Shown here: one piece after another, positions 3,401-59,425 of the stretch
Position numbering within the stretch: the first letter of the stretch is position 1
Layout of the letters: every line of letters begins with the position of its first letter
Source of the DNA: Patescibacteria group bacterium
GTDB lineage: Bacteria > Patescibacteriota > Doudnabacteria > UBA920 > O2-02-FULL-48-8
Direction of reading: 5' to 3'
DNA length: 64,000 nt
NCBI GenBank assembly: GCA_036278915.1
Contig: DASUKB010000001.1
Location: 173,186 to 237,185, forward strand
Made by a program: the position numbers and the translations under genes
Notes under the pieces: generated by a model
What the model saw: the letters and a program-made list of their open reading frames with translations, nothing else
What the model was told of the DNA's origin: nothing
Databases searched by the model: none

Positions 3401-3405
3401 ACATT

Positions 3406-3461
3406 GTCATTCTGAGCGAAGCGAAGAATCTTATAAGATCCTTCACTGCGTTCAGGATGAC
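3406..3461 (+). terminator. long imperfect hairpin in fba 3' region (plus-strand specific, contains G.U wobbles)
   Basis: GTCATTCTGAGCGAAGCGAAGAATC...TCACTGCGTTCAGGATGAC. Mismatches are T-G/G-T only on the plus-strand RNA. No T-tract. Confidence 0.35.
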
Positions 3462-3483
3462 AGGTAAAAATTAATTAAATTTT

Positions 3484-3615: not shown

Positions 3616-3750
3616 AACCCCTTCCAACCTCCCCTTATGTTAAGAGGAGGAGTAGACTAAGACCAGGCTGCAGCTTGGTTTGGGTTTACCCCCTCTTAGA
3701 ATAAGAGGGGGTACGTAACACGAGGATTATCGGGGGAGTTAGAAACAAAT
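3616..3750 (+). repeat. structured intergenic/leader element, copy 2
   Basis: Near-identical to 1689-1814. Ends GGGGGAGTTAGAAACAAA, 5 nt before the gap ATG. Confidence 0.6.
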
Positions 3751-4818: not shown

Positions 4819-4899
4819 CACCCCCCGGCCTTCGGCCACACCCTCTTTAGTAAAGAGGGGGTGCGTACGCCAAGGGTTCGCGGGGGGAGTTCTAAAAAA
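4819..4899 (+). promoter_or_regulatory. leader element copy 3 (GGCC-TTC-GGCC hairpin, CCCTCTTTAG/TAAAGAGGGGG hairpin, GGGGGGAGTTCTAAAAAAATG)
   Basis: Shares hairpin + GGGGAGTTCTAAA architecture with five other sites. Confidence 0.5.
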
Positions 4900-11692: not shown

Positions 11693-12109
11693 ATGCCGAA
11701 TAAATTGATTATGTACACGGATGGTGGTGCGCGTGGCAATCCTGGTCCGGCCGCAATAGGCGTCGCCATTTATGAAGCGGGGCGCATCAATGAGCCTCTC
11801 AAAACCTTCGGCAAATATTTGGGCGAGACTACGAATAATCAGGCCGAGTACCGCGCGCTTATCGCAGGTTTGGAAATGTGCAAGGCTTTGAACGCCTCAC
11901 ATGTGGTTTGCTACATGGATTCGGAATTGGTCGTACGGCAAATCACGGGTGTTTATAAAATCAAAGAGGCCGGTCTCAAAGAGCTGGCCATGGACGCCAT
12001 ACGGCTGAAGAATAATTTTGACATTGTGGAATTTAAACACGTGCCGCGCGAAAAGAACAAACTCGCTGACCGGCTGGTCAATGAGTGTTTAGATAATGAA
12101 TTGAGATAA
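11693..12109 (+). CDS. rnhA: ribonuclease HI
   Basis: 138 aa. YTDGGARGNPGPAAIGV and catalytic D/E/D pattern of type-1 RNase H. Confidence 0.85.
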   Translation: MPNKLIMYTDGGARGNPGPAAIGVAIYEAGRINEPLKTFGKYLGETTNNQAEYRALIAGLEMCKALNASHVVCYMDSELVVRQITGVYKIKEAGLKELAMDAIRLKNNFDIVEFKHVPREKNKLADRLVNECLDNELR

Positions 12110-12116
12110 ATTTTGG

Positions 12117-13391
12117 TTACCGAATTTTATAACTTGCCAAATGCATGTCGTCAAACACCGTCAGAACCGACCCATTGCTGTTGAGCGTAAATTGGGAGTT
12201 GGGTCCGACATTGGTCAGGATGGTGTAGATATTGCGATGATCACGGCCATCCAGCTCCACTGCTTTGATGGCATTTTCATTTTCGAAAAATACATAGCCG
12301 TCGTAAGAATTGATAACGGGATGATTTAGAGTGCTAATGGAGCGCAAGATCAGTTCCGTTTTTTTCTGCTGCGGATCATATAGGAGAATGTCGTTGGCGT
12401 CGGCAAACAACAGTTCATGGCTTGCTGTATCATAGCTTGCAGCCGTGGCGCCGTCGTAGATTTTTTCTAAACTGTCATTAAGTTTATAAAGCGATTTGTC
12501 TAAAAGCAGAAAAGTATTCCCTTCGCCGCGGATGATTTGCGCGTTTTGAGAAGTGGGCAGATTTGTGTAAATTGTAGTCGTAACTTTGGTGCGCAAATTA
12601 TATTCTTTCAGCAATTGGCCCTGCACGTACCAGAGGTTTTCACCATCCATGCTAAAACCCGAAACATTGGTATCCACGGTCTGCGGGTCATTAGCAGACA
12701 GAACCTGCAGCTGTCGTGCAGCCAGAATGGCGAAATTGTCGCCGTCGGTTTGCACCTGACTAATGCTTGAGATATCTGGCACCGAAAACGAATGGCTTTG
12801 GAAATAGCTTAGAACTTTAGCCGCATTGCTCCAGCGCAAATTTTCCGTAAATGTGAGGGGCACATAAAAATTTCCTATATTGCCCAGCTGCTGTGTGCTC
12901 TGGCTGCCAACGTCATAAATATGCAAATTATTATTTTGGATGTAAGCAATTTCGGTGCCATTATCCGATAAGCTGGAGAAATTATCGGACATTTCGATTT
13001 GTTGTTGCGGTTCGGCAAGAAACAGCGTGATAAAATCTCGGTCAAAGTTAACCCAGGTCGCAAGCTGCGGGTCTACGCTCAGCCGCTTAGTCCAGGACTG
13101 GTAGCCGGTTTTTTCTATCCGGACATTGTAATCGCCAGGCAGCACGAAACGCACAGTCTCAGGCGTTAATCCTTGAGCCTTTTGATTATTAAGATAAATA
13201 TCTGCTTTGTCGGGCATGGTTTGGACTATGAGTACCCCGGTTTTCACGATCTTGTGGTGCGTCCAGTCTATCTCATAGCCGATTGTAAACAAAACCAGGA
13301 GAGGGACAATTACCACAAATATGAGGATTCCAAACCCGACTAGTAGAAATCGATTGCGTAAAGTCATATAATACCTACTAATTTTACGCAA
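12117..13391 (-). CDS. membrane-anchored PEGA-domain protein with beta-propeller-like C-terminal region
   Basis: 424 aa. N-terminal TM. PEGA-like LPGDYNVRIEKTGYQSW. Convergent with rnhA (7-nt gap). Confidence 0.7.
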   Translation of the reverse strand: MRKISRYYMTLRNRFLLVGFGILIFVVIVPLLVLFTIGYEIDWTHHKIVKTGVLIVQTMPDKADIYLNNQKAQGLTPETVRFVLPGDYNVRIEKTGYQSWTKRLSVDPQLATWVNFDRDFITLFLAEPQQQIEMSDNFSSLSDNGTEIAYIQNNNLHIYDVGSQSTQQLGNIGNFYVPLTFTENLRWSNAAKVLSYFQSHSFSVPDISSISQVQTDGDNFAILAARQLQVLSANDPQTVDTNVSGFSMDGENLWYVQGQLLKEYNLRTKVTTTIYTNLPTSQNAQIIRGEGNTFLLLDKSLYKLNDSLEKIYDGATAASYDTASHELLFADANDILLYDPQQKKTELILRSISTLNHPVINSYDGYVFFENENAIKAVELDGRDHRNIYTILTNVGPNSQFTLNSNGSVLTVFDDMHLASYKIR

Positions 13392-13472: not shown

Positions 13473-14729
13473 ATGTCCAAATTTATAATTACAGGCGGGA
13501 AACCGCTTGCAGGTGAAATCAAAGTTTCGGGATCAAAAAACGCAATCGTGGCGCTGATGGCCGCGTCGCTTTTGACTCAAGATGAATGTGTCATCACCAA
13601 TGTTCCAGAAATTTCCGACGTCCAAAGTTTAATTGAAATATTAAAAGAATTAGGCGTACAGGTTGAATACGGCAAACATAAACTGGTCATCAGAGCAGAG
13701 AATATCGCAAAGGTGAATCCGAGTGCCGAACTGGTTGGCAAACTTCGCGGTTCGATTTTGCTTTTAGGTCCAATCCTTGCTCGCAAACATGAGGTGGATT
13801 TCCCTTTTCCGGGAGGGGATCTTATCGGCAAGCGACCTATCAATGCTCACACCGATGCATTCAAAAATTTGGGAGCCTTAGTGGATACTTCAAACGGCAC
13901 TCTTAAAATTACGGCTGATAATTTGAAGGGCAGCAAAGTCGTCCTAACCGAAACATCTGTTACCGCCACCGAAAATATCATGCTGGCCGCGGCTCTGGCA
14001 GAAGGACCTACCACAATCAAACTGGCGGCAATGGAACCGCATGTGCAGCAACTTGGGTTGTTCCTCAAAAAAATGGGAGCAAAGATTAAAGGCGTGGGCA
14101 CTCCAACTATTACAATTGAGGGCGTTGATAAATTACACGGGGCCAAAATCAAAGTTATTCCGGACGACAACGAGGCTTCGAGTTTGATTACAATGGCAGC
14201 CGTATGCGGTATGGACGTGAAGGTATCCAAACTTGAACCCGAGCATTTGGAAGACTATCTTTTGAAATTAAAAACGATGGGAGTGAATTTTGAAGTCGGG
14301 GAAGATTATGTCCGCGTGAAAAAATCTGATACGCTCATGGGAATTGCCAAACTGCAATGCGGATTTTATCCGAAATTAAATTCCGACTATATACCGCCGA
14401 TGTCTGTCTTGGCCACACAGGCTACTGGCGAAACCGTGATATATGACTGGATGTATGAAAATCGCACAGGTTACGCAACGGAATTAAACAAAATGGGCGC
14501 GCAAATTGAAGTTTTGGATCCGCACCGAGTAAAAATTGCAGGCCCGACTAAATTGCATGAGGCATCACTAAGCGCAGGAGATTTGCGCATGGGCATGACT
14601 TTGGTAATTGCCGCTTTGATAGCCGAAGGTAAATCTGAAATCAATGACGTGCATCACATCGACCGCGGGTATGAAAATTTAGAAAAAAGATTGCGAATGC
14701 TAGGCGCAGATATTAAGAGGGCGAATTAA
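13473..14729 (+). CDS. murA: UDP-N-acetylglucosamine 1-carboxyvinyltransferase
   Basis: FIITGGKPLAGEIKVSGSKNA N-terminal signature of MurA/EPSP-synthase fold. About 418 aa from ATG 13473. Confidence 0.9.
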   Translation: MSKFIITGGKPLAGEIKVSGSKNAIVALMAASLLTQDECVITNVPEISDVQSLIEILKELGVQVEYGKHKLVIRAENIAKVNPSAELVGKLRGSILLLGPILARKHEVDFPFPGGDLIGKRPINAHTDAFKNLGALVDTSNGTLKITADNLKGSKVVLTETSVTATENIMLAAALAEGPTTIKLAAMEPHVQQLGLFLKKMGAKIKGVGTPTITIEGVDKLHGAKIKVIPDDNEASSLITMAAVCGMDVKVSKLEPEHLEDYLLKLKTMGVNFEVGEDYVRVKKSDTLMGIAKLQCGFYPKLNSDYIPPMSVLATQATGETVIYDWMYENRTGYATELNKMGAQIEVLDPHRVKIAGPTKLHEASLSAGDLRMGMTLVIAALIAEGKSEINDVHHIDRGYENLEKRLRMLGADIKRAN

Positions 14730-14784
14730 CCTAATTCTAAACTGTTTAGATCAATTAGAAATTAAAAATTAGAAATTTTGATAT
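14730..14784 (+). promoter_or_regulatory. conserved AT-rich upstream module copy 2 (palindrome CTAAAC-T-GTTTAG + TCAATTAGAAATTAAAAATTAGAAATTTT)
   Basis: Aligned by eye to 2451-2518 and 58966-59014. Confidence 0.45.
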
Positions 14785-15792: not shown

Positions 15793-15851
15793 ATTATCCT
15801 GTGGTTTTCTACAGCTTGTACACAGGAAAAATATTTTTCTGCGAATTGCTT

Positions 15852-15879
15852 AGGAAAGTGGCTTCCTGAAAATTTTTTT
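15852..15879 (+). terminator. terminator-like hairpin + T-tract after mreB paralog 1
   Basis: AGGAAAG-TGG-CTTCCT followed by GAAAATTTTTTT. Confidence 0.4.
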
Positions 15880-16107
15880 GACGCAAAATTTCATGCGTGC
15901 CAGAATATTTGAGGTTAAGCCTACTAAACGTTTAGAAATAGAGAATAAAAAATCGGTAAGTCGTAATTGAAACTTCGCCTCTTTAGAGAGCAGGATCAAT
16001 TCAAAAAAGACCTACTGATTTTTTGTTGGAAAAAAAGAAACCCGACAACACACGATGTGTCGTCGGGTAAGTAGGCCTGGATTATTTTTTCAAAACAGGT
16101 TCCAGCA

Positions 16108-16247
16108 CCGAACAACCGCTCGGCCAGCCGCAATGCTGGGATCGTCAAAATCCGCTATTTATATGTATATAGAAGTGGATGTTGACTCACGCAAAATTTT
16201 CTGATGAAAATTTTGAGTGTCCGCATTGCGGCTGGCCTCGCTAATAA
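16108..16247. repeat. 140-bp repeat R1 copy 1 with 15-bp terminal inverted repeats (GGCCAGCCGCAATGC ... GCATTGCGGCTGGCC); MITE-like or structured ncRNA
   Basis: 137/140 identical to 25813-25952. Internal hairpin CAAAATTTTC-TGATG-GAAAATTTTG. Confidence 0.7.
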
Positions 16248-16262
16248 GTTATCCTGGAGGTT

Positions 16263-16291
16263 TTGTCAACGCTTGTGGCAAATGGTATAAT
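16263..16291 (+). promoter_or_regulatory. strong sigma70-like promoter (TTGTCA-17-TGgTATAAT) driving leaderless holB
   Basis: -10 ends 7 nt before ATG 16298, so the predicted TSS is at or near the A of ATG. Confidence 0.55.
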
Positions 16292-16297
16292 TTGTAT

Positions 16298-17158
16298 ATG
16301 TTTGAAACAATTGCGGGCCATGCGAAACAGAAACAATTACTAACCAAATCCATAGAATCTGGCAAAATTGCGCATGCATATGTTTTTGCCGGCCCAGGTT
16401 CGGTGGGCAAAAGATTAATCGCGAAAGGCTTTGCGAACGCTTTGTTAGGGATGAGCGATGAGGGGAGAGGGATGAGTTTCCACCCGGATCTTTTAGAAAT
16501 TGCAGGGGATGAACCCGTCAAAATTGAGCAGATTCGCGAATTGATTTATAAACTTTCGTTGCAGCCTTACCAAGCCAAATACAAAATCGCGCTCATTGAT
16601 AATGCTGAAAATATGACAACTGAAGCGCAGAACGCGCTCCTTAAGGCTTTGGAAGAACCCAAAAGCTACACGGTCATGATTTTAGTCACGGAAGCTTTTG
16701 GAAAACTTTTGGGTACGATTACTTCTCGGGCGCAGAAATTAAATTTCGGTCTTGTCCGTCCTGCAGACTTCCAAGCTTTGCTTCCGGCAAATTTACCTGA
16801 ATGCGATGTAAAACAAATCGCCGAGTTTGCTGCTGGTCGCCCCGGACTGGCAGTGCGGATTGCCAACGATTCGGATTTGCGCGAAACACTTTCGGAAATA
16901 AATAATAATTTGGAAATAATCAAATCACAAGATTTACCGGCCAAACTCAAACTGGCATATGATCTGGCAGAGCTCGAAACAGTAGAGCTGCGACAACAAT
17001 TTGATTTTTGGCTTGCCAGACTTGAACAGGATCTGCTGACAGAACCAGGCAAGCTCCCGGCTCGATATATTTCCGCGGTGGCGCGATCGCGAAAGCATCT
17101 GGATCAAAACGCCAACAGCAAACTGCTTTTGACCAATTTGATGCTCCAACTCAACTGA
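16298..17158 (+). CDS. holB: DNA polymerase III delta' subunit
   Basis: ORF track begins at 16217 (inside R1 repeat). ATG 16298 gives MFETIAGHAKQK...AHAYVFAGPGSVGKR Walker-A-like clamp-loader motif. Confidence 0.85.
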   Translation: MFETIAGHAKQKQLLTKSIESGKIAHAYVFAGPGSVGKRLIAKGFANALLGMSDEGRGMSFHPDLLEIAGDEPVKIEQIRELIYKLSLQPYQAKYKIALIDNAENMTTEAQNALLKALEEPKSYTVMILVTEAFGKLLGTITSRAQKLNFGLVRPADFQALLPANLPECDVKQIAEFAAGRPGLAVRIANDSDLRETLSEINNNLEIIKSQDLPAKLKLAYDLAELETVELRQQFDFWLARLEQDLLTEPGKLPARYISAVARSRKHLDQNANSKLLLTNLMLQLN

Positions 17159-17159
17159 C

Positions 17160-18209
17160 ATGAAAAAAATTTTTATACTTTTATTGTCCCTAAGTTTGAC
17201 CGCGGTCAGCTGCAACCAGCTTTTGTTTGGCGGTACGGGAGCCATGGGCGTGTTTAAGTCCGAAGACTCCGGCCAAAGCTCTAGCGCCGCAAATAAGATA
17301 GACAAAAAAAACAATCTCAATTCAACCTCGGTGAACAGCCTCGTGTTTGGATTTAACGATAGCCAGACGATTTATTTGGCGTCATCCGCTGGCGTGTACA
17401 AAAGTTCGGACGCCGGCTCAACCTGGAAACTAATGCTGACCAATATTGCGGTCGCGGACGTGGCCGCAGACGCCACATCCGGAACGCTGTACGTGGCGGG
17501 GCTTTCGGACAACCACGGCAAAATTGTGAAAACTGCAGATGACGGCTCATCCTGGAGCGATGTCTATACTGAACCGACGTCGGGCAATACCGTCCGCTCC
17601 TTAGCTGTGGACCCAAGCAACCACGCGCAAGTATTTGCCGGCCTTTCGGCCGGAGAAATTATAGTCTCACAAGATTTTGGCCTGACCTGGCAAGTGGTCA
17701 CTGATCTCCACGACGTTATTTATCGCCTGAGGTTTGGGCCAAACGGCAATCTCTACGTACTCACGGTAAGTCACGGACTTTATGAAAGCCGCGATGGCGG
17801 AAAGACTTTTACTGATTTAAGCAGTACGCTGACGAATGGGTTTATAAATCCAGACGCGAATTTTTCATCCGTGTCCAAATTTTTGGATTTGGCTTTTGAC
17901 CAAAAACAGCCGGGAGTGCTGTACCTGGCCACGGATGCAGGACTTATACGAAGCGTGGATGATGGAATGAATTGGGCGTTTATGCAAATGCCGGTGCGCA
18001 ACGCCGAACTTCGGACTTCGGCCGTGGCAGTGGATCCGGCTAATTCCAACAATCTCTACGCAGTGGTGGGCAATACCCTATTTAAATCCACAAATGGCGG
18101 TGCGGCCTGGGAAACTAAACCCCTGGCAAGCGGCCAGGAAGTGCGTCAAATCCTAATTGACTACAGTTCGCCAAATGTGATTTACTTAGGGATGGGAGCA
18201 GCAAAGTAA
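17160..18209 (+). CDS. BNR/Asp-box repeat beta-propeller lipoprotein (Ycf48/sialidase-like fold)
   Basis: Signal peptide with lipobox AVSC. Six S-x-D-x-G-x-[TS]-[WF] repeats (SSDAGSTW, TADDGSSW, SQDFGLTW, SRDGGKTF, SVDDGMNW, STNGGAAW). Confidence 0.65.
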   Translation: MKKIFILLLSLSLTAVSCNQLLFGGTGAMGVFKSEDSGQSSSAANKIDKKNNLNSTSVNSLVFGFNDSQTIYLASSAGVYKSSDAGSTWKLMLTNIAVADVAADATSGTLYVAGLSDNHGKIVKTADDGSSWSDVYTEPTSGNTVRSLAVDPSNHAQVFAGLSAGEIIVSQDFGLTWQVVTDLHDVIYRLRFGPNGNLYVLTVSHGLYESRDGGKTFTDLSSTLTNGFINPDANFSSVSKFLDLAFDQKQPGVLYLATDAGLIRSVDDGMNWAFMQMPVRNAELRTSAVAVDPANSNNLYAVVGNTLFKSTNGGAAWETKPLASGQEVRQILIDYSSPNVIYLGMGAAK

Positions 18210-18238
18210 TAAGTTAAAAGTGAGAAGTCATAAGATTT

Positions 18239-18796
18239 ATGAATTTAAATATCTTGGACCAAAAGCAGGATGAGTTTCAAAAAATTGTTGACCACCTAAA
18301 AGGAGAATTGGCTACTTTGCGCACAGGGCGTGCAAATTCCGCTCTCGTGGAGCAATTGAGCGTGGAGTATTATGGCGCACCCACACCGCTCATCCAGATT
18401 GCTCAAATTTCCGTTCCCGAGCCGCGCGTCATAGCTATACAGCCCTACGATAAATCCGCGCTCAAAGACATAGAAAAGGCCATCCAACAGTCCAACATTG
18501 GCATCCAGCCTGTGAATGATGGCAACTTTGTTCGGCTCAATATCCCTGCCATGACCGAAGAGCGGCGCAAGGAGTTGGTCAAGGTTGTGGGCCAGATGGC
18601 GGAAAAGGCGAGAGTATCGGTGCGCAACGTGCGTGAAGATGTCTGGAAAGAAGTCCAGCGCATGGAAAAAGACGACGAGATTTCCGAAGACGACAAAATC
18701 GCGGCCAAAGAAGAACTGCAGGAAGTTGTAGACCGGTTCAATGAAGAGATCAAAAAAATCACCGAGCTGAAAGAAAAGGAAGTGATGACAATTTAG
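18239..18796 (+). CDS. frr: ribosome recycling factor
   Basis: 185 aa. Full-length RRF-like sequence with coiled-coil arm. Confidence 0.95.
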   Translation: MNLNILDQKQDEFQKIVDHLKGELATLRTGRANSALVEQLSVEYYGAPTPLIQIAQISVPEPRVIAIQPYDKSALKDIEKAIQQSNIGIQPVNDGNFVRLNIPAMTEERRKELVKVVGQMAEKARVSVRNVREDVWKEVQRMEKDDEISEDDKIAAKEELQEVVDRFNEEIKKITELKEKEVMTI

Positions 18797-18855
18797 GTTG
18801 TAGGTAGTGGGGCGTAGGCGGTAGCCTACAAACTACAACCTGCCAACTATAAACT

Positions 18856-19971
18856 ATGATATTGCTTACAATTGTAATTTTTGTAATCATTTTGGGCCTC
18901 CTAGTTTTTGTACACGAGCTGGGGCATTTTATAATGGCCCGCCGGGCCGGCATGGCAGTGGAGGAATTCGGATTTGGTTTTCCACCGAGGATTTTTGGCA
19001 TTAAGCGCGGCGAAACAACATATTCTATAAATTGGATTCCGCTGGGCGGCTTTGTAAAAATTTTGGGTGAAAACGGCGAGTCGCAAGATCCTAAAGCTTT
19101 CGGCAGCAAAGGTTTTTGGCCGAGATTCTCCGTGCTTGTGGCGGGAGTGCTTATGAACGCCATCTTTGCCTGGGCGCTTATCGCCATTGCTATGACTTCG
19201 GGTCTGCCCACTATTATCGGCCAGGGCGACACCCTGCCTTCGTATGCCCACGCCCAAGCCGCACAGGTGTCTGTGGTTGAGGTGGAGGACGGCACGCCGG
19301 CCGCCAATGCCGGCATCAAAGTTGGTGACAGCATTTACAAAATCAACGGCCAACAAATTACATCAATTGACCAGGTCCAGGCTCTGACTTCCCAGTCCGC
19401 TGGAGAGTCCACAGAATTTGAACTCAAGCGGGGCAATTCAGATTTTACTAAAACCATCACGCCCAGAGTCAACCCGCCGGAAGGCGAGGGACCACTGGGA
19501 ATTGCTTTGTCATCTGTGGCTAAAGTTTCGTACCCATGGTATCGCTCGCTCTGGCTTTCGGTGATGACTACGGCCGGGCTCATATGGGCCACGCTTTCGG
19601 CGTTTGGTCAGCTCATAGTACAAGCCGTACATCACCAGCCTGTGAGTCAGGCACTTTCTGGGCCGGTGGGTATAGCCGTGCTCACGCACGATGTGGCGCA
19701 ACTTGGGCTTATTTACCTTATCCAGTTTACGGCAGTCCTGTCGATTAATTTGGCAATTATAAACATCGTGCCATTTCCGGCGCTGGACGGCGGGCGCGTC
19801 CTGTTTTTGATCATTGAAAAAATTCGCCGCCGCAAACTAAATCCCAACGCCGAATCCTACGCCAATGCTATCGGCTTTATGCTTCTGATTCTGCTTATGG
19901 TGTTTGTGACTATTAAAGACATCAATCACTACTCGGATTCATTTAAGCATTTGTTCAGCAACTTATTTTGA
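18856..19971 (+). CDS. rseP: RIP metalloprotease RseP (site-2 protease, M50 family)
   Basis: HELGHFIMARRAG HExxH in first TM, PDZ-like middle region, C-terminal LDGG. Confidence 0.85.
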   Translation: MILLTIVIFVIILGLLVFVHELGHFIMARRAGMAVEEFGFGFPPRIFGIKRGETTYSINWIPLGGFVKILGENGESQDPKAFGSKGFWPRFSVLVAGVLMNAIFAWALIAIAMTSGLPTIIGQGDTLPSYAHAQAAQVSVVEVEDGTPAANAGIKVGDSIYKINGQQITSIDQVQALTSQSAGESTEFELKRGNSDFTKTITPRVNPPEGEGPLGIALSSVAKVSYPWYRSLWLSVMTTAGLIWATLSAFGQLIVQAVHHQPVSQALSGPVGIAVLTHDVAQLGLIYLIQFTAVLSINLAIINIVPFPALDGGRVLFLIIEKIRRRKLNPNAESYANAIGFMLLILLMVFVTIKDINHYSDSFKHLFSNLF

Positions 19972-19999
19972 CAGCTCGAAAGACTGGTGGAGAGCCTGT

Positions 20000-20007
20000 G
20001 GTATAAT
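20000..20007 (+). promoter_or_regulatory. extended -10 TGgTATAAT upstream of proS leader
   Basis: ctgTGGTATAATtgagg. The leader element lies between this and ATG 20084. Confidence 0.4.
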
Positions 20008-20016
20008 TGAGGCAAT

Positions 20017-20064
20017 GCCCTCACCCCCGGCCCCTCTCCCGGATCGGGAGAGGGGAGTTCTAAA
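20017..20064 (+). promoter_or_regulatory. leader element copy 4 (GCCCTCACCCC box + CCCCTCTCCC/GGGAGAGGGG hairpin + AGTTCTAAA)
   Basis: Lies between predicted -10 and proS ATG, hence transcribed 5' UTR. Confidence 0.5.
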
Positions 20065-20083
20065 TTGAAGTGGACCAGAGCAT

Positions 20084-21319
20084 ATGAAGCAATCAGAATT
20101 ATTTGTAAAAACCTTAAGGAACGCACCCAAAGATGAAGAGACTATAAACGCTCAACTTTTGGTGCGCGCAGGTTTTGTAAACAAACTCATGGCTGGCGTA
20201 TATTCATACCTGCCGCTTGGGCTTTTGACGTTGCGAAAAATTAGCGAACTCGTGCGTTGCGAGATGGATTCAATTGGCGGCCAGGAAATCCTTATGCCAG
20301 GATTGCATCCGGCCGAGAACTGGAAGACAACCGGCGGCTGGGACAAAGTAGATGTTTTGTTCAAGATTAAATCCCGCACCGAAAAAGACTATGCACTCGG
20401 GCAAAGCGAAGAAGAGGTCGTGACGCCGCTTGTAATGGGCTATATTGAGACCTACAAGGATCTGCCGCAGGCTGTGTATCAAATTGGCTGGAAGTTCCGC
20501 GATGAACTGCGATCCAAGTCCGGGCTTTTGCGCGGCAGGGAGTTTTTGATGAAAGATATGTACAGCTTCCATGAGAGCCAGGCGGACTTCGATAGGTTTT
20601 ATGAGATTGTCAAAAAGGCGTATCTTCGGATATTTGAAAAGATTGGGCTTGTGGCCAAGGTTACGGAAGCCTCGGGAGGCGCGTTTTCGGAAAAAATTTC
20701 CTATGAATTTATGGTACTCACTGATGCGGGGGAAGATGACATTTTGTATTGCGATGCTTGCGAGTTCTGCGTAAATACCGAAATTGCCAAAGTCGTGGCT
20801 GGCGATGCTTGCCCCAAATGCGGAAAAGGAAAATTATCGCAAGCCAAAGCTTCCGAAGTAGGAAATGTCTTTGATCTCGGCCAAAAATATGGCAAGGATT
20901 TTGACTTGGGTTTCCGGGACCAGGAAAACCAGGTTAAATATCCGATTATGGGATGTTATGGCTTGGGAATTTCAAGGCTTATGGGCGTAATTGTGGAAAA
21001 ATTCCATGACGACCGGGGAATTATCTGGCCTCAAGCAGTGTCGCCTTTTGACTTACACCTTTTAAACATTGCCCAAGATGAAAAAGTTACGGAAAAATTA
21101 TACCAAACTTTACAGTCCGCGGGGTTTTCGGTACTATTAGATCAAAGAGACGTGCGTCCCGGCGAAAAATTTGCCGACAGCGATCTTATAGGCATTCCAT
21201 GGCGGATTTTGGTGTCCGACAAAACGCTTGAAACCGATTCCGTGGAAATCAAACCCAGAAACAGCGATCAAACTTCAATTGTTAAGATAAAGGATCTGCC
21301 CGAGAGCCTAAAAAACTAA
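20084..21319 (+). CDS. proS: prolyl-tRNA synthetase, short form lacking INS editing domain (Cys4 zinc-ribbon insert instead)
   Basis: N-terminus resembles bacterial ProRS (LLVRAGFVNKL..YSYLPLG). Motif 2 FRDE...REFLMKDMYSF. CDACEFC...CPKCGKGK where E. coli carries the INS domain. Confidence 0.85.
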   Translation: MKQSELFVKTLRNAPKDEETINAQLLVRAGFVNKLMAGVYSYLPLGLLTLRKISELVRCEMDSIGGQEILMPGLHPAENWKTTGGWDKVDVLFKIKSRTEKDYALGQSEEEVVTPLVMGYIETYKDLPQAVYQIGWKFRDELRSKSGLLRGREFLMKDMYSFHESQADFDRFYEIVKKAYLRIFEKIGLVAKVTEASGGAFSEKISYEFMVLTDAGEDDILYCDACEFCVNTEIAKVVAGDACPKCGKGKLSQAKASEVGNVFDLGQKYGKDFDLGFRDQENQVKYPIMGCYGLGISRLMGVIVEKFHDDRGIIWPQAVSPFDLHLLNIAQDEKVTEKLYQTLQSAGFSVLLDQRDVRPGEKFADSDLIGIPWRILVSDKTLETDSVEIKPRNSDQTSIVKIKDLPESLKN

Positions 21320-21362
21320 AAACGAAAATCAAAAATCAGTTCCTAAATTAAAGCGACACCAA

Positions 21363-22424
21363 ATGCCACTGTTTGATTTCGTTTACGACAAATTCAGCAA
21401 AGATATAGGAATTGATTTGGGTACAGCCAATACTCTTGTCTATGTTAAAGGCCGCGGTATTGTTGTAAACGAACCGTCCGTGGTGGCCATAAACCAGAAG
21501 ACCAAGCAGATCTTGGCGATTGGAGATGATGCCAAACGCATGGTGGGCAGAACGCCTGCGCATATTGTGGCCCACCGGCCTTTGGTGGATGGTGTGATTT
21601 CTGACTTTGACATTACCGAACAAATGTTGCGCTATTTTATAGAAAAAGTTAGCCAGGCGACATTTGGCTTTTTGTCTCGTCCGCGCGTGGTAGTCGGCAT
21701 CCCTTCCGGAGTCACGGAAGTGGAAAAACGCGCGGTGCAGGATGCTACGCTAAATGCCGGCGCTCGTGCGGCATTTCTTATTGAAGAGCCTATGGCCGCA
21801 GCAATTGGAGCCAGACTTCCGGTTCAGGACCCTCAGGGCTGTTTTATCGTGGATATTGGCGGCGGGACTTCGGAGATTGCAGTCATCTCACTGGGTGGTA
21901 TTGTGGTGTCAAAAAGCATCCGCGTCGCCGGCGATGAGCTGAACGAAAACATTGTCCAATTTGCTCGGGACGAATATAACTTGCTTATCGGCGAGCGCAC
22001 GGCTGAAGACATTAAAATCCGCATTGGTTCGGCTGCGCCGCTCAAAGGTGAAAAGCAAAAAATGGCTATGCGCGGGCGTGATCTTATTTCTGGGTTACCC
22101 AAGGAAATTATGGTCACGGACGACCAGATCCGGCATGCTATTTCGCGTTCGGTCCGCTTGATCGTCAACAACATCAAAACTGCTGTTGAGGAATCTCCGC
22201 CGGAGCTGGTGGCAGACATCATGGACCGAGGCATTACTATTTCCGGCGGAGGCGCGCTCCTGCGGGGACTGGATAAACTTCTGGCACAGGAGACACAAAT
22301 GCCAATTACCGTGGCTGATGATCCGCTGACTGCCGTAGTGCGAGGCTGCGGCGTGATTTTGGAAGATCTAGAGGCGCTCAAAGACGTACTGGTACCCACC
22401 CAATTTGAACCAATTCCAAGATGA
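21363..22424 (+). CDS. mreB: rod shape-determining protein MreB (paralog 2, heads mreBCD-mrdA cluster)
   Basis: 353 aa. GIDLGTANTLVYV, DIGGGTSEIAV. Confidence 0.9.
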   Translation: MPLFDFVYDKFSKDIGIDLGTANTLVYVKGRGIVVNEPSVVAINQKTKQILAIGDDAKRMVGRTPAHIVAHRPLVDGVISDFDITEQMLRYFIEKVSQATFGFLSRPRVVVGIPSGVTEVEKRAVQDATLNAGARAAFLIEEPMAAAIGARLPVQDPQGCFIVDIGGGTSEIAVISLGGIVVSKSIRVAGDELNENIVQFARDEYNLLIGERTAEDIKIRIGSAAPLKGEKQKMAMRGRDLISGLPKEIMVTDDQIRHAISRSVRLIVNNIKTAVEESPPELVADIMDRGITISGGGALLRGLDKLLAQETQMPITVADDPLTAVVRGCGVILEDLEALKDVLVPTQFEPIPR

Positions 22425-22508
22425 AACTAAGAGCTGGGAAGTTGGAAGCTGGAAACGAGTTTTTGGCTTCCTAGCTTCTAGCTTCGAAGCTTCCTAGATT
22501 CTATTTCT

Positions 22509-23312
22509 ATGAGATTTATCTACACCCGTACATTTACAATCGGCTTCGTTATCTTTGCCCTCGTCGCAGTCATTGCTATTTCCGACGCCAAAGGGTATCT
22601 GGGCCGAGTACGCGACGGATTTGCTCTTGGGTTTGGATTTGTGGAAGAAAAGCTTACCAGCGGCGTCAATTCCGGCAAGAATTTATTTGAAACTTTCTTT
22701 ACAATCCGAAAGCTCGTAAGCGAGAATTCTTCACTTCAGCAGAAAATAAATGAACTGTCGTTTGAAAATGCCAGATTACAGATATCGTCCAGTGAGAACA
22801 CCACGCTTCGTACAGCATTGGACTTTAAGCAAAAAGAAAGCTTAAACCTGGTGCCAGTGGAGGTAGTGGCAGCGGATCCGACTGGGTTCAACCAGGTTGT
22901 AACTATTAACAAAGGCAGTAGCGACAATCTGGCTTTGGGCAACGCCGTGGTGGTCGCGCCAGGACTTTTGGTGGGCAAAATTACGTCCCTTGCGCCGCAT
23001 ACGGCGTCCGTGACGCTTATAACGGATCCGTCTGTGACTGTGGCGGCTAAAGTCCCGGATTCTGGGGCGCAGGGCCTGGTCTCCGGCGAGCATGGACTTG
23101 GGCTGTCGTTCAATCTTGTGAGCCAAAATGAGGTCATCAAAACGCAGGATAATGTCGTCACTTCTGATTTATCCCAGGACTTTCCGGAAGGTTTGCTTAT
23201 TGGACAGATTGACTCCATTAAATCCCAACCCTCGGAATTGTTCCAACAAGCATCTATTTCTCCGGCTGCGGATTTACGCAATTTGAAATTTTTATTTGTG
23301 GTTGAACCCTAA
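22509..23312 (+). CDS. mreC: rod shape-determining protein MreC
   Basis: N-terminal TM, coiled-coil (SLQQKINELSFENARLQ), beta-rich C-terminal domains (LVGKITSLAPHTASVTLITDPS). Confidence 0.8.
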   Translation: MRFIYTRTFTIGFVIFALVAVIAISDAKGYLGRVRDGFALGFGFVEEKLTSGVNSGKNLFETFFTIRKLVSENSSLQQKINELSFENARLQISSSENTTLRTALDFKQKESLNLVPVEVVAADPTGFNQVVTINKGSSDNLALGNAVVVAPGLLVGKITSLAPHTASVTLITDPSVTVAAKVPDSGAQGLVSGEHGLGLSFNLVSQNEVIKTQDNVVTSDLSQDFPEGLLIGQIDSIKSQPSELFQQASISPAADLRNLKFLFVVEP

Positions 23313-23830
23313 TGCGGTACGGGATTTTTATTTTCATGGTTCTCGGCCTTATGGCAATCCAGGGCGGGATTCTTGCACCGTTCGGATTGAGCCATTTTGG
23401 CAATCTGGCGCTGGTGTTCGTGGTTATGGTACTTACAATTTCGGACCGATCGGAAAATCTTTATTTGGCGCTTATCGCCGGACTGCTCATGGACTTTGCT
23501 TCGGGTTTGCTGCTTGGAACATTTGTGGTCTGCATGCTGGCTGTGTTTGGGTTCACCTATTTGTTCGTAAAACTGTTTATCCAGCGCACAGCCGACAGGA
23601 AACTTGTACTGCTTTCGAGTGTCCTGCTCAATACTATAGTATTGAGTTTATGTTTCTGCGCTTTGGAGCAGCTGGCGGCTCATTTTCATCTGCCGGCAAA
23701 CACTGACTGGCATAATATTTTAGGGCGCAAATTGTTATTGGACTTGGCCGCAAACGCGATCTTAACCTATCCTATCTATTGGCTTTACGTATTTATGGAA
23801 AAATTGCAGTATCGTTTTGAAAGAATATGA
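23312..23830 (+). CDS. mreD: rod shape-determining protein MreD (polytopic membrane)
   Basis: 172 aa, 4-5 hydrophobic helices. Position between mreC and mrdA. Start overlaps mreC stop (TAATG). Confidence 0.65.
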   Translation: MRYGIFIFMVLGLMAIQGGILAPFGLSHFGNLALVFVVMVLTISDRSENLYLALIAGLLMDFASGLLLGTFVVCMLAVFGFTYLFVKLFIQRTADRKLVLLSSVLLNTIVLSLCFCALEQLAAHFHLPANTDWHNILGRKLLLDLAANAILTYPIYWLYVFMEKLQYRFERI

Positions 23831-23850
23831 ACGAATTATAGAGCATCAAC

Positions 23851-25788
23851 ATGAACCCATTTGAAGACAAAAATTATTTAAACAAGAAATTTGATTCAGG
23901 TAAAAACCTGAGTTTCGAGGAAATTTACGCTGACTCCAAAGACGAGGCGCCAAGCATTGAAAGCGAACGCGAAACCATTAACTTCCGCGTGCTGGCCGTG
24001 GTGGCCGCAATCCCGATTTTACTTTTGGCGGGACGATTGTTTTTTCTGCAGTCGGTTCGCGGCGCAGACTTTCGCGCTCAGGCGGAAGGAAATAAACTCC
24101 GCGTTGTGCCCACGTACGCGCCACGCGGACTGATTTTGGATGCAAACGGCAAGACAATTGCCCAGAACATGCCGAATTTTGAGCTGGATGTGATCCCGTC
24201 CGATTTGCCCAGTGACCAACAGGCCTGGGAGACGGAAGTTGGAAAAATTTCTCAAATTTTGAATGTTGACCCGCAGACTATCGACCGGGAAATTTCGCCT
24301 CTGGACCGCGGTTCAACCCAGACCACAAGCATTGTCTCAAGCATTACCCAGGAGCAGGCGCTGGCGCTGATCCCGCAGATTTCAAATTATCAGGGGTTTA
24401 GCGTGGAAGACAACCCCATTCGGGACTATAAAGATGCGCAGGTGTTTGCGCCGGTTGTGGGCTACACCGGCAAAATCACGCAGCAGGAACTTGCCGACCA
24501 CAGCGGGCAGGGGTATTTGTTCAACGATTATATCGGTAAGACCGGACTGGAGCTGCAGTATGAAAATTATTTGCGCGGCGTGTCCGGGCAGAAGCAAACC
24601 GAAATAGATGCCCAGGGCAATGTCGTCAAATCGCTAGCCGACATAGTGCCTAAACCAGGTGACAACATTACGCTCAATATCGACTACGATCTGCAAAAAG
24701 TTATATACGATGACCTAACCAAGACCTTAAACCAATACCACCTTACCCGAGGCGCAGCCGTGGCCACCAATCCCAAAACCGGCCAGGTTCTGGCTTTGGT
24801 TTCAATTCCGTCTTACGACAATAGCCTCTTTGCCAAAGGCATTTCGCAGGAAGATTACAATACACTTCTAAATAATCCCGACCATCCGCTTTTAAATCGC
24901 GCTATTTCCGGTCTGTACCCGCCGGGTTCTACGGTCAAACCAATGATGGCTATTGCCGGATTGACCGAGGGCGTGATTACTCCTCAGACAAAAATTTTGG
25001 ATGATGGAGTCATCCGGGTGGGCAACTTTACTTTTTATGGATACGAGCATTCGGGTTTGGGCATCATGGATGTTTATTCGGCAATTGCTAAATCATCGGA
25101 TATTTATTTCTATACGGTCGGCGGCGGCCGGGCAGGCACAGGCATTTCGGGGCTTGGGCCTGACAAGATCGCGGAATGGTTCCGTAAATTCCATTTGGGA
25201 TCCAAGCTGAATATCGATTTGCCCAACGAACAGGCAGGGTTGGTGCCGGATCCGGCATGGAAACAGCAAACGCGAAACGAGCAGTGGTACCTCGGCGACA
25301 CCTATCATTATTCCATTGGTCAAGGAGATTTGCTCGTCACACCATTGCAGGTTAATTCCTGGACCGCGACTGTTGCCAATGGCGGCACTGTCATGCAGCC
25401 TTACATTCTAAACAAAATTACGGACCAGGACGGGAATGTCGTCAAACAGATGCAGCCGCAGGTTTTGGCCGCCAACCAGTTTGACCCAAACTACATTCAG
25501 GTTGTGCAGCAGGGCATGCGCGACACCACGCTGCCGGGAGGTTCCGCATATTCGCTGCATACGGTAGGCATGTCTATTTCGGGCAAAACCGGCTCGGCCC
25601 AATTTGACGCCTCTCGGCCTGATTTGACGCATGCCTGGTTTACTTCGTATGCGCCGTCAGAGGATCCGCAAATTGCGCTCACGGTATTAGTGGAATCCGC
25701 GGGCGAAGGTGCTATATATTCTGTGCCGATTTCACATGAAATTTATGACTGGTGGGCGGCAAATAGATTGAACAAAAATAATCAATAG
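23851..25788 (+). CDS. mrdA: penicillin-binding protein 2 (elongasome transpeptidase)
   Basis: 645 aa. N-terminal TM, SxxK (GSTVKP), SxN-like (YSIGQG), KTG (SGKTGSA) motifs. Confidence 0.9.
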   Translation: MNPFEDKNYLNKKFDSGKNLSFEEIYADSKDEAPSIESERETINFRVLAVVAAIPILLLAGRLFFLQSVRGADFRAQAEGNKLRVVPTYAPRGLILDANGKTIAQNMPNFELDVIPSDLPSDQQAWETEVGKISQILNVDPQTIDREISPLDRGSTQTTSIVSSITQEQALALIPQISNYQGFSVEDNPIRDYKDAQVFAPVVGYTGKITQQELADHSGQGYLFNDYIGKTGLELQYENYLRGVSGQKQTEIDAQGNVVKSLADIVPKPGDNITLNIDYDLQKVIYDDLTKTLNQYHLTRGAAVATNPKTGQVLALVSIPSYDNSLFAKGISQEDYNTLLNNPDHPLLNRAISGLYPPGSTVKPMMAIAGLTEGVITPQTKILDDGVIRVGNFTFYGYEHSGLGIMDVYSAIAKSSDIYFYTVGGGRAGTGISGLGPDKIAEWFRKFHLGSKLNIDLPNEQAGLVPDPAWKQQTRNEQWYLGDTYHYSIGQGDLLVTPLQVNSWTATVANGGTVMQPYILNKITDQDGNVVKQMQPQVLAANQFDPNYIQVVQQGMRDTTLPGGSAYSLHTVGMSISGKTGSAQFDASRPDLTHAWFTSYAPSEDPQIALTVLVESAGEGAIYSVPISHEIYDWWAANRLNKNNQ

Positions 25789-25812
25789 GGGCTCGGGCAG
25801 GAATTTTTTTGC

Positions 25813-25952
25813 CCGAACAACCGCTCGGCCAGCCGCAATGCTGGGAGCGTCAAAATTCGCTATTTATATGTATATAGAAGTGGATGTTGACTCACGCAAA
25901 ATTTTCTGATGAAAATTTTGTGTGTCCGCATTGCGGCTGGCCTCGCTAATAA
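25813..25952. repeat. 140-bp repeat R1 copy 2
   Basis: 137/140 identical to 16108-16247. Same terminal inverted repeats. Confidence 0.7.
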
Positions 25953-26020
25953 AAGTTTACGCGTTGTCTTTCAAAAATTCTCGTCCTCGCTCGATTATTT
26001 TTGTAGAAAAGGGGGGAAAG

Positions 26021-26029
26021 TGGTAGAAT
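26021..26029 (+). promoter_or_regulatory. extended -10 TGgTAGAAT giving near-leaderless mntH-like transcript
   Basis: -10 ends 12 nt before ATG 26042. Confidence 0.35.
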
Positions 26030-26041
26030 AGTTAAAGAAAT

Positions 26042-33085: not shown

Positions 33086-33166
33086 TCCCTCACCCCAGAC
33101 AGATTTCGGCAGCAAATGAGGGAGTGAATCTCTCTCCCCCAGATGGGAGAGGGGGAGTTCTAAAAG
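33086..33166 (+). promoter_or_regulatory. leader element copy 5 (TCCCTCACCCC box, CTCTCCCCC/GGGAGAGGGGG hairpin, AGTTCTAAAAG)
   Basis: Same architecture as copies 4 and 6. 13 nt before ATG 33179. Confidence 0.5.
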
Positions 33167-44331: not shown

Positions 44332-44378
44332 TCCCTCACCCTCTTACCCCTCTCCCGAGAGGGATAGGGGAGTTCTAA
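44332..44378 (+). promoter_or_regulatory. leader element copy 6 (TCCCTCACCC box, CCCCTCTCCC/GGGATAGGGG hairpin, AGTTCTAAG)
   Basis: Same architecture as copies 4 and 5. Confidence 0.5.
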
Positions 44379-44392
44379 GAAGAAGAATCAAG

Positions 44393-58965: not shown

Positions 58966-59014
58966 AAAAATTGATCTAATTTCTAAAATTTAGGTCAATT
59001 AAAAATTATAAATT
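58966..59014 (+). promoter_or_regulatory. conserved AT-rich upstream module copy 3 (palindrome CTAAA-A-TTTAG + TCAATTAAAAATTATAAATT)
   Basis: Aligned to 2451-2518 and 14730-14784. Confidence 0.45.
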
Positions 59015-59425
59015 ATGAAGAAGCTTAATCCTAAAGATAACGCCGCTCATCTGTTTTGCCTGTTTCTGGCAGAGGAAATGCGAAAACGCACGATTTCGCT
59101 TGGTCAGGCCAAGGAAATGGCGCGCGCCGTAGTGGCTCACAAAAATCTTGTCGATAACGAAGAGCATATGTTGCGGCTGGTTATCGAACTTTCCAAAGAT
59201 TTCCCGCAACTCAAGAATTTTGAAAAAAAACTTGCGGAATATATTGAGAAGACAACACGCTCCAAACAAGAACTTTTGATTACAGAGTTTGTCTCGCAAA
59301 TTATGGATTCCGACCCAAACCAGGCCATGAGAATTCTGGATGACGCTATAGAGTCGTCTTACAATTTGGACGCTCTCAAAGCTAAGTATCCAGAACTTGG
59401 ACAATTTTTAAACCAAAACCAATGA
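59015..59425 (+). CDS. hypothetical helical 136-aa protein
   Basis: ORF directly after module copy 3. No family recognised. Confidence 0.5.
   Translation: MKKLNPKDNAAHLFCLFLAEEMRKRTISLGQAKEMARAVVAHKNLVDNEEHMLRLVIELSKDFPQLKNFEKKLAEYIEKTTRSKQELLITEFVSQIMDSDPNQAMRILDDAIESSYNLDALKAKYPELGQFLNQNQ

Follow-up and report, generated by a model that had tools for sequence, protein, structure and literature searches.

Several kinds of small palindromic repeat have been described between the genes of bacteria. REPINs, elements of ~100 nucleotides (nt) in which two conserved inverted sequences enclose a more variable interior, are mobilised by RAYT tyrosine transposases (Bertels & Rainey, PMC3116915; bioRxiv 10.1101/2021.07.10.451892); they occur in about 10% of eubacteria, linked to two RAYT groups (cited review; PMC3116915, bioRxiv 10.1101/2021.07.10.451892), and have been portrayed as inherited vertically, slow to duplicate and perhaps beneficial (bioRxiv 10.1101/2021.07.10.451892; PMC3116915). 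Each REP arm of a REPIN is itself a palindrome of ~14 bp, copies typically number hundreds per genome, and the cognate single-copy RAYT gene is usually flanked by REPs. Correia elements (CREE) of Neisseria and ERIC elements of enterobacteria are 100-150-nt intergenic inverted-repeat elements, co-transcribed with their neighbours, whose transcripts form long hairpins open to processing by RNase III or RNase E (PMC2649163; PMC2229807); their repeats are truly terminal and they are associated with a TA target duplication. In PATEs, which derive from IS200/IS605, the left and the right end each have a hairpin of their own, and insertion takes place 3' of a fixed tetra- or pentanucleotide. We describe here a 140-nt repeat that occurs twice in a stretch of 64,000 nt (hereafter the window) from a Patescibacteria group bacterium of Candidatus Doudnabacteria (assembly GCA_036278915.1, contig DASUKB010000001.1, positions 173,186 to 237,185 of the forward strand), once between mreB-1 and holB (copy 1) and once between the genes for PBP2 and Nramp (copy 2). 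The element is a new family of the known general kind of small palindromic intergenic repeats; we found no description of small repeat elements in Patescibacteria in the literature searched.

Two near-identical copies with subterminal inverted repeats

The two copies lie 9.7 kb apart on the plus strand, in identical orientation. They agree at 137 of 140 positions without a gap (blastn within the window, E 7e-66), which bears out a preliminary description of this DNA in which a near-identical pair differing at three positions had been noted; the mismatches (copy 1/copy 2, in copy 1 numbering) are 16142 T/G, 16152 C/T and 16216 A/T. Homology ends abruptly on both sides, and the flanking DNA of the two copies is dissimilar. 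The same description had named MreB, holB and PBP2 (mrdA) as neighbours, in agreement with Pfam, which adds Nramp and gives the gene order MurA, MreB-1, the first spacer, HolB (DNA polymerase III delta', right of copy 1), BNR protein and, further on, MreB-2, MreC, MreD, PBP2, the second spacer, Nramp and GreA. The spacers, previously put at about 500 and 250 bp, measure 508 nt (mreB1-holB, 15793-16300) and 253 nt (PBP2-Nramp, 25789-26041). No third copy was found in the window by blastn or with a covariance model, nor a further one in an extra 12 kb of the source genome represented by Logan contigs (~76 kb covered in all), and no open frame spans the element in any of the six reading frames.

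Each copy contains two 15-nt arms, GGCCAGCCGCAATGC and GCATTGCGGCTGGCC, which match nowhere else in the window. They had been taken for terminal inverted repeats; the arms are there, but the common unit reaches past them by 14 nt on the left (CCGAACAACCGCTC) and 10 nt on the right (TCGCTAATAA), which makes the inverted repeats subterminal; the two outer parts do not form an inverted repeat with each other. The sequence of the interior had likewise been given; it reads TTGACTCACGCAAAATTTTC-TGAT-GAAAATTTTG, with TGAT and not TGATG at its centre, one G having been counted twice.

A family of diverged relatives in Doudnabacteria

One covariance model was built from the two window copies (R1) and another from these copies and the first relative found (R2), and both were run over loci of related genomes, fetched by way of their PBP2 proteins. 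The window PBP2 is identical to HEX5429672.1; the next closest PBP2 sequences share 66-69% identity with it. Five diverged relatives were found in three Doudnabacteria contigs (L068, L069 and L070; Table 1), which brings the family to seven copies in four genomes and three kinds of intergenic site: the mreB1-holB spacer, the PBP2-Nramp spacer and, within an operon, the gap between the genes for AspRS and a NUDIX protein. Because diverged relatives are found in three related genomes, the repeat is a dispersed family and not a one-off segmental duplication; the unrelated flanks, the five further members and the three contexts thus settle in favour of an independent element a question that the preliminary description had posed. 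Copies occupy the same spacers in genomes at this distance in PBP2, with inter-copy identities of 48-98%. Their density is 2 per 76 kb in the window genome, 3 per 22 kb in L070 and 1 per 22 kb in L068 and in L069.

All seven copies are intergenic and oriented in the sense of the neighbouring genes, and since GC skew is positive across the whole window, its copies lie on the presumed leading strand. Some sites are empty in other genomes: the PBP2-Nramp spacer lacks the element in L061-63, where it is 66 nt long, and in L068, and the AspRS-NUDIX site is empty in L060, because the two genes are 5 nt apart there. Beyond these genomes the family left no trace in what was searched: the consensus-arm pattern gave one chance match in IMG/VR, and the 140-mer matched no plasmid or phage by blastn. 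Rfam at the gathering threshold recognised only a tRNA in the window, and at E values up to 10 returned chance-level matches (RT-6 at 12.7 bits against a cut-off of 46.7) and no ribozyme model.

Table 1. Features of the two window copies and their surroundings, and relatives of the element in other Doudnabacteria contigs.
Feature	Position	Strand	Basis
Copy 1 of the 140-nt unit, upstream of holB, between relic terminator and holB promoter	16108..16247	+	alignment, fold, identity matrix
P1 5' arm, copy 1 (GGCCAGCCGCAATGC), pairs with 16223-16237	16122..16136	+	arm search, fold, P1 alignment
P1 3' arm, copy 1 (GCATTGCGGCTGGCC)	16223..16237	+	arm search, fold
Hairpin P2, copy 1 (GTCAAAATCCGCT...AGTGGATGTTGAC)	16144..16185	+	fold, compensatory changes
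Hairpin P3, copy 1 (CAC-G-CAAAATTTTC-TGAT-GAAAATTTTG-A-GTG)	16187..16219	+	fold, motif comparison
Copy 2 of the 140-nt unit, PBP2-Nramp spacer, begins 24 nt past PBP2 stop codon	25813..25952	+	alignment, fold
P1 5' arm, copy 2	25827..25841	+	arm search, fold
P1 3' arm, copy 2	25928..25942	+	arm search, fold
Intrinsic terminator, 13-bp stem (16068-16040) and T-run (16039-16030), orphan-gene relic, outside the repeat	16030..16068	-	terminator scan, L060/L069 comparison
39-nt stretch like last codons, stop and spacer of L060 orphan open reading frame	16069..16107	-	by inspection
holB promoter TTGTCA-17-TATAAT with TG; ATG at 16301; kept in relatives	16263..16291	+	promoter scan, comparison
Right flank of copy 2, putative 3' remnant of an older copy	25953..26021	+	alignment with L070, suggestive only
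GCTCGGGCAGG..., similar to L070 5' arm start (TCGGGCAG); putative 5' remnant of an older copy, weak	25790..25812	+	comparison
Relative, mreB1-holB spacer	L069:578-714		covariance model, 42 bits, E 1e-11
Relative, begins at PBP2 stop, upstream of Nramp (same site as copy 2)	L070:11887-12027		covariance model, 89.5 bits, E 4e-23
Relative, mreB1-holB spacer	L070:762-883		covariance model, 37.6 bits
Relative, occupies 117-nt AspRS-NUDIX gap, inside operon	L070:17469-17581		covariance model, 29.2 bits
Relative (weak), mreB1-holB spacer; motifs in common with family	L068:2096-2222		covariance model, 17.9 bits, E 0.012

A Y-shaped fold maintained by compensatory changes

Both window copies are predicted to fold into a three-way junction, made of a closing stem (P1) and two hairpins (P2 and P3). 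In these copies P1 is a perfect helix of 15 bp, followed outward by a 2x2 UC/UC internal loop and two more pairs. The plus-strand folds have energies of -66.5 and -67.4 kcal/mol (z -9.5 and -9.1) for copy 1 and copy 2, respectively, and the minus-strand folds -61.8 and -55.3 kcal/mol; two of the three differences between the copies give a G-U pair on the plus strand and a mismatch on the minus strand, two events being too few for evidence. Folded separately, all seven copies adopt the same Y shape. In a model-fitted alignment of the window copies with the L069 relative, 15 pairs are changed on both sides, compared with 5.2 +/- 1.8 in shuffles and 1-4 in slid controls, and when the P1 arms from four distinct copies are aligned without gaps, 8 of the 15 pairs show a double-sided change and 98% of the cells are paired. 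The earlier proposal that the arms pair as a long stem is upheld by these compensatory changes, and the repeat itself is real, well beyond chance.

The arm consensus is (T)CGGnCAGCCGC / GCGGCTGnCCTCG, with CAGCCGC/GCGGCTG as the core of the closing stem; outside this core there is a conserved TC/TC internal loop and then 2-4 further covarying pairs. Two subtypes can be told apart: subtype A keeps the motifs GATCG, CAAAAAT, TTGxCTCA, TTTCTGAT (in the region of the P3 loop) and GAGTGTC, and subtype B, which comprises two of the L070 copies, has a second UC/UC loop and GC-rich hairpins. When G-U pairs are weighed against A-C mismatches, the plus strand is favoured in three copies and the minus strand in four, a split that speaks against one particular RNA strand being under selection and is consistent with a palindrome at the level of DNA. 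Modelling predicts that the element would form a Y either as single-stranded DNA or as RNA co-transcribed with its neighbours.

The DNA that adjoins copy 1 (16091-16107 and 16248-16265, CAAAAC...TTCCAG / CTGGAG GTTTTG) can add a further 12-bp imperfect helix to the predicted minimum-energy fold, which could be due to chance or could hint at an insertion preference for hairpin or palindromic targets.

History of the holB and Nramp sites

The identity matrix relates copy 1 most closely to copy 2 (98%), then to the L070 copy at the Nramp site (71%), and least to the L070 copy at its own, orthologous site (54%). In L068, L069 and L070 the holB-site element directly follows a conserved small RNA (sRNA)-like block, and in L060 and L069 the mreB1-holB spacer also carries a minus-strand orphan gene with its own terminator hairpin and a strong promoter, the -35 box of which overlaps that of holB. 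The order in the window is the sRNA-like block, the terminator hairpin, 39 nt, copy 1, 13 nt and the conserved promoter region, from which it follows that copy 1 occupies the former place of the orphan gene and that the ancestral, block-adjacent copy is gone. The minus-strand terminator itself had already been recognised; it exists, displaced from the 16046-16075 given for it to the stem and T-run listed in Table 1. The 39 nt between it and copy 1 look like a remnant of the lost orphan gene, and the -35 box of holB is palindromic, its minus strand reading TTGACA, the old orphan-gene promoter. Since copy 1 shares 98% identity with copy 2 and only 54% with its L070 counterpart at the orthologous site, and since it replaced an orphan gene, we regard it as a recent copy-paste product; judging from the sequences, it may derive recently from the Nramp-site lineage, or both window copies may derive from an unseen third copy.

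Copy 2 may sit inside the remains of an older copy, although the signs are suggestive only. To its right, 25993-26021 is orthologous to the DNA directly 3' of the Nramp-site element in L070 (just 2 of 500 shuffled sequences score as high) and is preceded by the family motif CCTCGCT (25985-25991); to its left lies an arm-start-like sequence, GCTCGGGCAG, within the stretch 25790-25812, which also pairs with the start of copy 2 in a local hairpin (TCGGGCA/TGCCCGA).

The repeat also interferes with annotation and assembly. A GTG at 16217, in the 3' part of copy 1, is in frame with holB, and the list of open reading frames extends HolB to it (313 aa); a Logan gene call likewise extends HolB (312 aa) from a contig start inside the repeat. 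The true start of holB is likely the ATG at 16301, behind the TATAAT box. Logan short-read contigs from the same sample break exactly within both window copies. The repeat thus gives rise to spurious N-terminal extensions, as for holB, and breaks short-read assemblies at both of its copies.

Both spacers harbour unrelated minus-strand orphan genes in other genomes (L059:12311-12784, L060:554-1162 and 12064-12387, L069:799-1584 and 12021-12506), those in the PBP2-Nramp spacer being found in L059, L060 and L069. The L060 (202 aa and 107 aa) and L059 (157 aa) products have no Pfam match, no mutual similarity and no match in the window. One strong promoter, TTGACAAAACCGCAAAAAAGGAGTATAAT, drives all four of the genes whose upstream regions were read (those other than L069:12021-12506), and its -35 box overlaps the one that belongs to the next plus-strand gene downstream. 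Accessory-gene turnover has hot spots in the mreB1-holB and PBP2-Nramp spacers. In L068 the mreB1-holB spacer contains, at 1009-1360, a promoter-like site, ~330 nt of apparently non-coding DNA and a terminator at the end; no counterpart exists in the window, and no Rfam match stands out.

Proposed mobility of the element

Taken together, these data describe a dispersed, structured non-coding family that is vertically persistent and has undergone at least one recent, precise duplication of 140 nt. The repeat is probably one member of a family of ~100-140-nt non-coding palindromic intergenic elements that is specific to the Candidatus Doudnabacteria clade and is mobilised by copy-paste. We infer that mobilisation takes place in trans, by an enzyme that is encoded elsewhere and would read the hairpin rather than terminal repeats. 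A single-strand HUH/Y1 transposase, IS200- or RAYT-like, would fit best because the hairpin is subterminal, mismatched bases are conserved, a target duplication is missing and the copies are uniformly oriented on the leading strand. One 140-nt unit would have been copied and pasted recently in the source genome, the holB-site copy being the new insertion, while other copies would persist for long at the same spacers as the family goes on duplicating. The element would be co-transcribed with the flanking genes without terminating transcription, and its role would at most be that of a structure at mRNA ends or for processing, comparable to REP, ERIC and Correia elements.

Several observations weigh against this interpretation. 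The source genome holds a total of two copies in ~76 kb, and the covariance model found no copy in 17-22 kb of L059, L060 or L061. Exact-pattern scans with the window's own arms in IMG/VR, the GTDB representative genomes and the JGI metagenomes returned only single-arm chance matches in GC-rich coding DNA. Terminal inverted repeats and a target-site duplication are both absent, so that the mechanism of mobility is entirely one that we propose; no transposase is present among the window proteins (Pfam) and none was seen adjoining the copies in the relatives' loci. That the same two spacers are occupied in different genomes, combined with the conserved junction and loop motifs (those of subtype A and CCTCGCT), would fit a functional RNA or DNA site selected by the host as well.

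The ends of the unit were also compared with those expected of known transposable elements. Akin to a canonical MITE (DDE type), the element is small, non-coding and dispersed in several copies (seven in four genomes), but it shows neither the terminal repeats nor the target-site duplication of that class. The suggestion of MITE-like terminal inverted repeats is not supported in that form: the repeats are internal to the unit, neither copy shows a target-site duplication, and there is no parent transposon close by. Direct repeats are absent from the unit ends in both copies, comparison of the filled with the empty AspRS-NUDIX site reveals no duplication, and the TC...TC by the arms is the conserved internal loop, succeeded by covarying pairs, and not a target duplication. 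Neither an 'empty target' (CCGAACAACCGCTAATAA) nor solo ends were found in the window.

The closest analogues are REPINs or elements of the Correia/ERIC type. With REPINs the Doudnabacteria family shares a size of ~100 nt, an extragenic location, two conserved inverted sequences around a more variable interior, hairpins predicted in single-stranded DNA or mRNA, vertical persistence with diversification within lineages, and the lack of any terminal-repeat or target-duplication signature. In contrast to REPINs, the arms are not short palindromes (by inspection, only the window's CGGCCAGCCG is weakly self-complementary, and the L070 and L069 arms are not), the interior consists of two conserved hairpins that make a three-way junction and is not a mere spacer, and 1-3 copies are seen per 22-76 kb; the host, moreover, is a Patescibacterium, and no RAYT (HUH/Y1) gene was found in the window or in the fetched loci of the relatives. 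Correia and ERIC elements resemble it in size, in intergenic inverted repeats, in probable co-transcription, in transcripts that are predicted to form long hairpins, and in that they may lie inside operons and beside promoters; they differ in their terminal repeats and TA duplication, where the repeats here are subterminal and no duplication is seen, and neither an IHF site, nor a promoter generated by the ends, nor sequence similarity is evident. PATEs have in common with it subterminal DNA hairpins with irregular bases, which would serve for recognition in place of terminal repeats, no target duplication, and a strand- and orientation-biased insertion, but here one long-range stem closes the element, and the left flanks in the window have no obvious common target.

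The genomes of Patescibacteria are very small and gene-dense. A structured repeat that different genera retain in the same spacers, and that continues to copy itself, would indicate that streamlined genomes, too, carry long-lived intragenomic replicators. More speculatively, the family might be the first REPIN-like, long-lived 'nested replicator' described in the Candidate Phyla Radiation, dependent on a domesticated single-strand transposase, or else a host-functional Y-shaped RNA or DNA module kept after genes, with the TC/TC loops and the TTTCTGAT loop as points of protein recognition. The covariance model could be used as a lineage marker, and the element could aid the study of accessory-gene turnover, as both of its spacers are orphan-gene hot spots.

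Alternative explanations

A possible, if rather unlikely, alternative to a mobilised repeat is that the host selects for a structured element after genes, either a cis-acting RNA (for example a structure for stability or processing at mRNA 3' ends or between cistrons, or an insulator before downstream promoters) or a protein-binding site in single- or double-stranded DNA. Copies at mreB1-holB and PBP2-Nramp would then be inherited vertically and occasionally copied by recombination or gene conversion. The mreB1-holB copy is indeed present in four of the five lineages with data, just after the sRNA-like block, and the post-PBP2 copy in two; junction and loop nucleotides are kept besides the compensated stems, all copies share the orientation of the genes, and the L070 AspRS-NUDIX copy is necessarily part of a polycistronic mRNA. 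On the other hand, the copies stand in dissimilar settings (behind an sRNA terminator, behind a stop codon, within an operon and, in L069, between convergent terminators), several relatives lack the element at the same spacers without a replacement, G-U pairs and A-C mismatches point to different strands in different copies, with no single RNA strand visibly selected, and no Rfam family matches. The copies moreover behave as a replicating sequence, because similarity within a genome exceeds that between orthologous sites and because a sharp unit of 140 nt replaced a gene. Selection by the host and mobility of the repeat are not exclusive and can both hold.

The preliminary description had proposed that the repeat is transcribed antisense as a small RNA, which in its explicit form means a minus-strand sRNA gene ended by the terminator at 16040-16068. 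This proposal is not supported and we consider it quite improbable, even though a canonical minus-strand terminator lies 40 nt past copy 1 and, by inspection, TATTAG can be read on the minus strand at the unit's right end, with a -35-like hexamer exactly 17 nt upstream (TTGACA in copy 1, TTGAAA in copy 2); the L070 holB-site copy also faces a minus-strand promoter-like site. TATTAG, however, lacks the invariant final T and was not called by the promoter scan, and the terminator and TTGACA require no sRNA, because both were left behind by an orphan-gene cassette, still intact in L060 and L069, where the terminator ends the orphan gene. Copy 2 has no minus-strand terminator, the L070 copies at the Nramp and NUDIX sites have neither promoter nor terminator on either strand, and the latter fills its 117-nt intercistronic gap; there are, in short, no promoter or terminator signals common to the copies that would mark an independent sRNA gene. 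The two informative differences between the window copies also keep the plus-strand fold and weaken that of the minus strand, and across the family the G-U pairs and A-C mismatches single out no consistent strand. An accidental minus-strand transcript could run across copy 1, which would not make it a property of the family. Least credible of all, and largely refuted, is a one-off local duplication of 140 bp, by illegitimate recombination or palindrome-promoted template switching, without any element identity: it would account for the two copies only in the source genome, 9.7 kb apart and in the same orientation, but homologues of the same architecture occur in three other genomes, among them three diverged L070 copies within 22 kb at three sites, and the flanks of the window copies are dissimilar.

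A number of known structures and sites were considered as identities of the repeat and rejected. It is not an intrinsic terminator, because no U-tract follows the closing stem, which is succeeded by TCGCTAATAA, TCACTTAAAA or TCGACCAGAA, and because one copy lies inside an operon; no closing stem was called as a terminator. A hammerhead ribozyme had been considered for the CUGAUGA motif and the three-way junction, but no model matches and the motif here forms a hairpin loop. The closing stem resembles the a1/a2 stem of a retron non-coding RNA, with no reverse transcriptase nearby; an integron attC site would have R'/R'' core sites, which are lacking; and the TGTATA of a dif/Xer site, in the P2 loop, is not kept in the relatives. 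A riboswitch for Nramp or holB is at odds with the unrelated downstream genes and with an identity of 98%, which is atypical of paralogous riboswitches. An internal outward promoter (TTGACT-18-GAAAAT) is not kept in the L070 copies.

Other repeats and conserved blocks nearby

The conserved non-coding block downstream of mreB-1 (window 15878-16037, plus strand; L060:~290-492, L068:~1870-2094, L069:~380-572 and L070:543-757) has a sigma-70-like promoter, TTGACG-17-CAGAAT with TG, an invariant 5' TTTGAGGTTAAGCCTA hairpin and a long-range stem, AAAAAATCGG.../...CCGATTTTTT, that covaries between genomes and, with a T-run at its end, doubles as a terminator. It has no Rfam match and, from these features, looks like a small RNA gene of ~120-190 nt in five Doudnabacteria lineages.

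A module with a CTCTCCC/GGGAGAG-type hairpin, directly followed by a Shine-Dalgarno-like GGGGAGTT(C/A)(T/G)AAA (GGGGAG motif), stands upstream of start codons in two families, D5/D6 (20034-20064, 33134-33164 and 44349-44379) and D2 (1748-1814, 3683-3749 and 4833-4899). The module could combine the functions of terminator and ribosome-binding site, or could sequester the Shine-Dalgarno sequence. A 47-nt AT-rich repeat with the palindrome AATTGAnCTAA...TTAGGTCAATT (2461-2507, 14725-14771 and 58969-59015) immediately precedes the gene for fructose-bisphosphate aldolase, mreB-1 and one unknown gene, and looks like a common operator or promoter. Finally, a second palindromic family, TGTCATTCTGAGCGAAGCGAAGAATC...GATCCTTCAC...CAGGATGACA, occurs at 3405-3462 in the window and at L066:1-59, a Logan contig of the source genome that ends inside that copy, ~3.7 kb left of the window; because this family recurs at L066, the source genome contains at least two kinds of dispersed palindrome.

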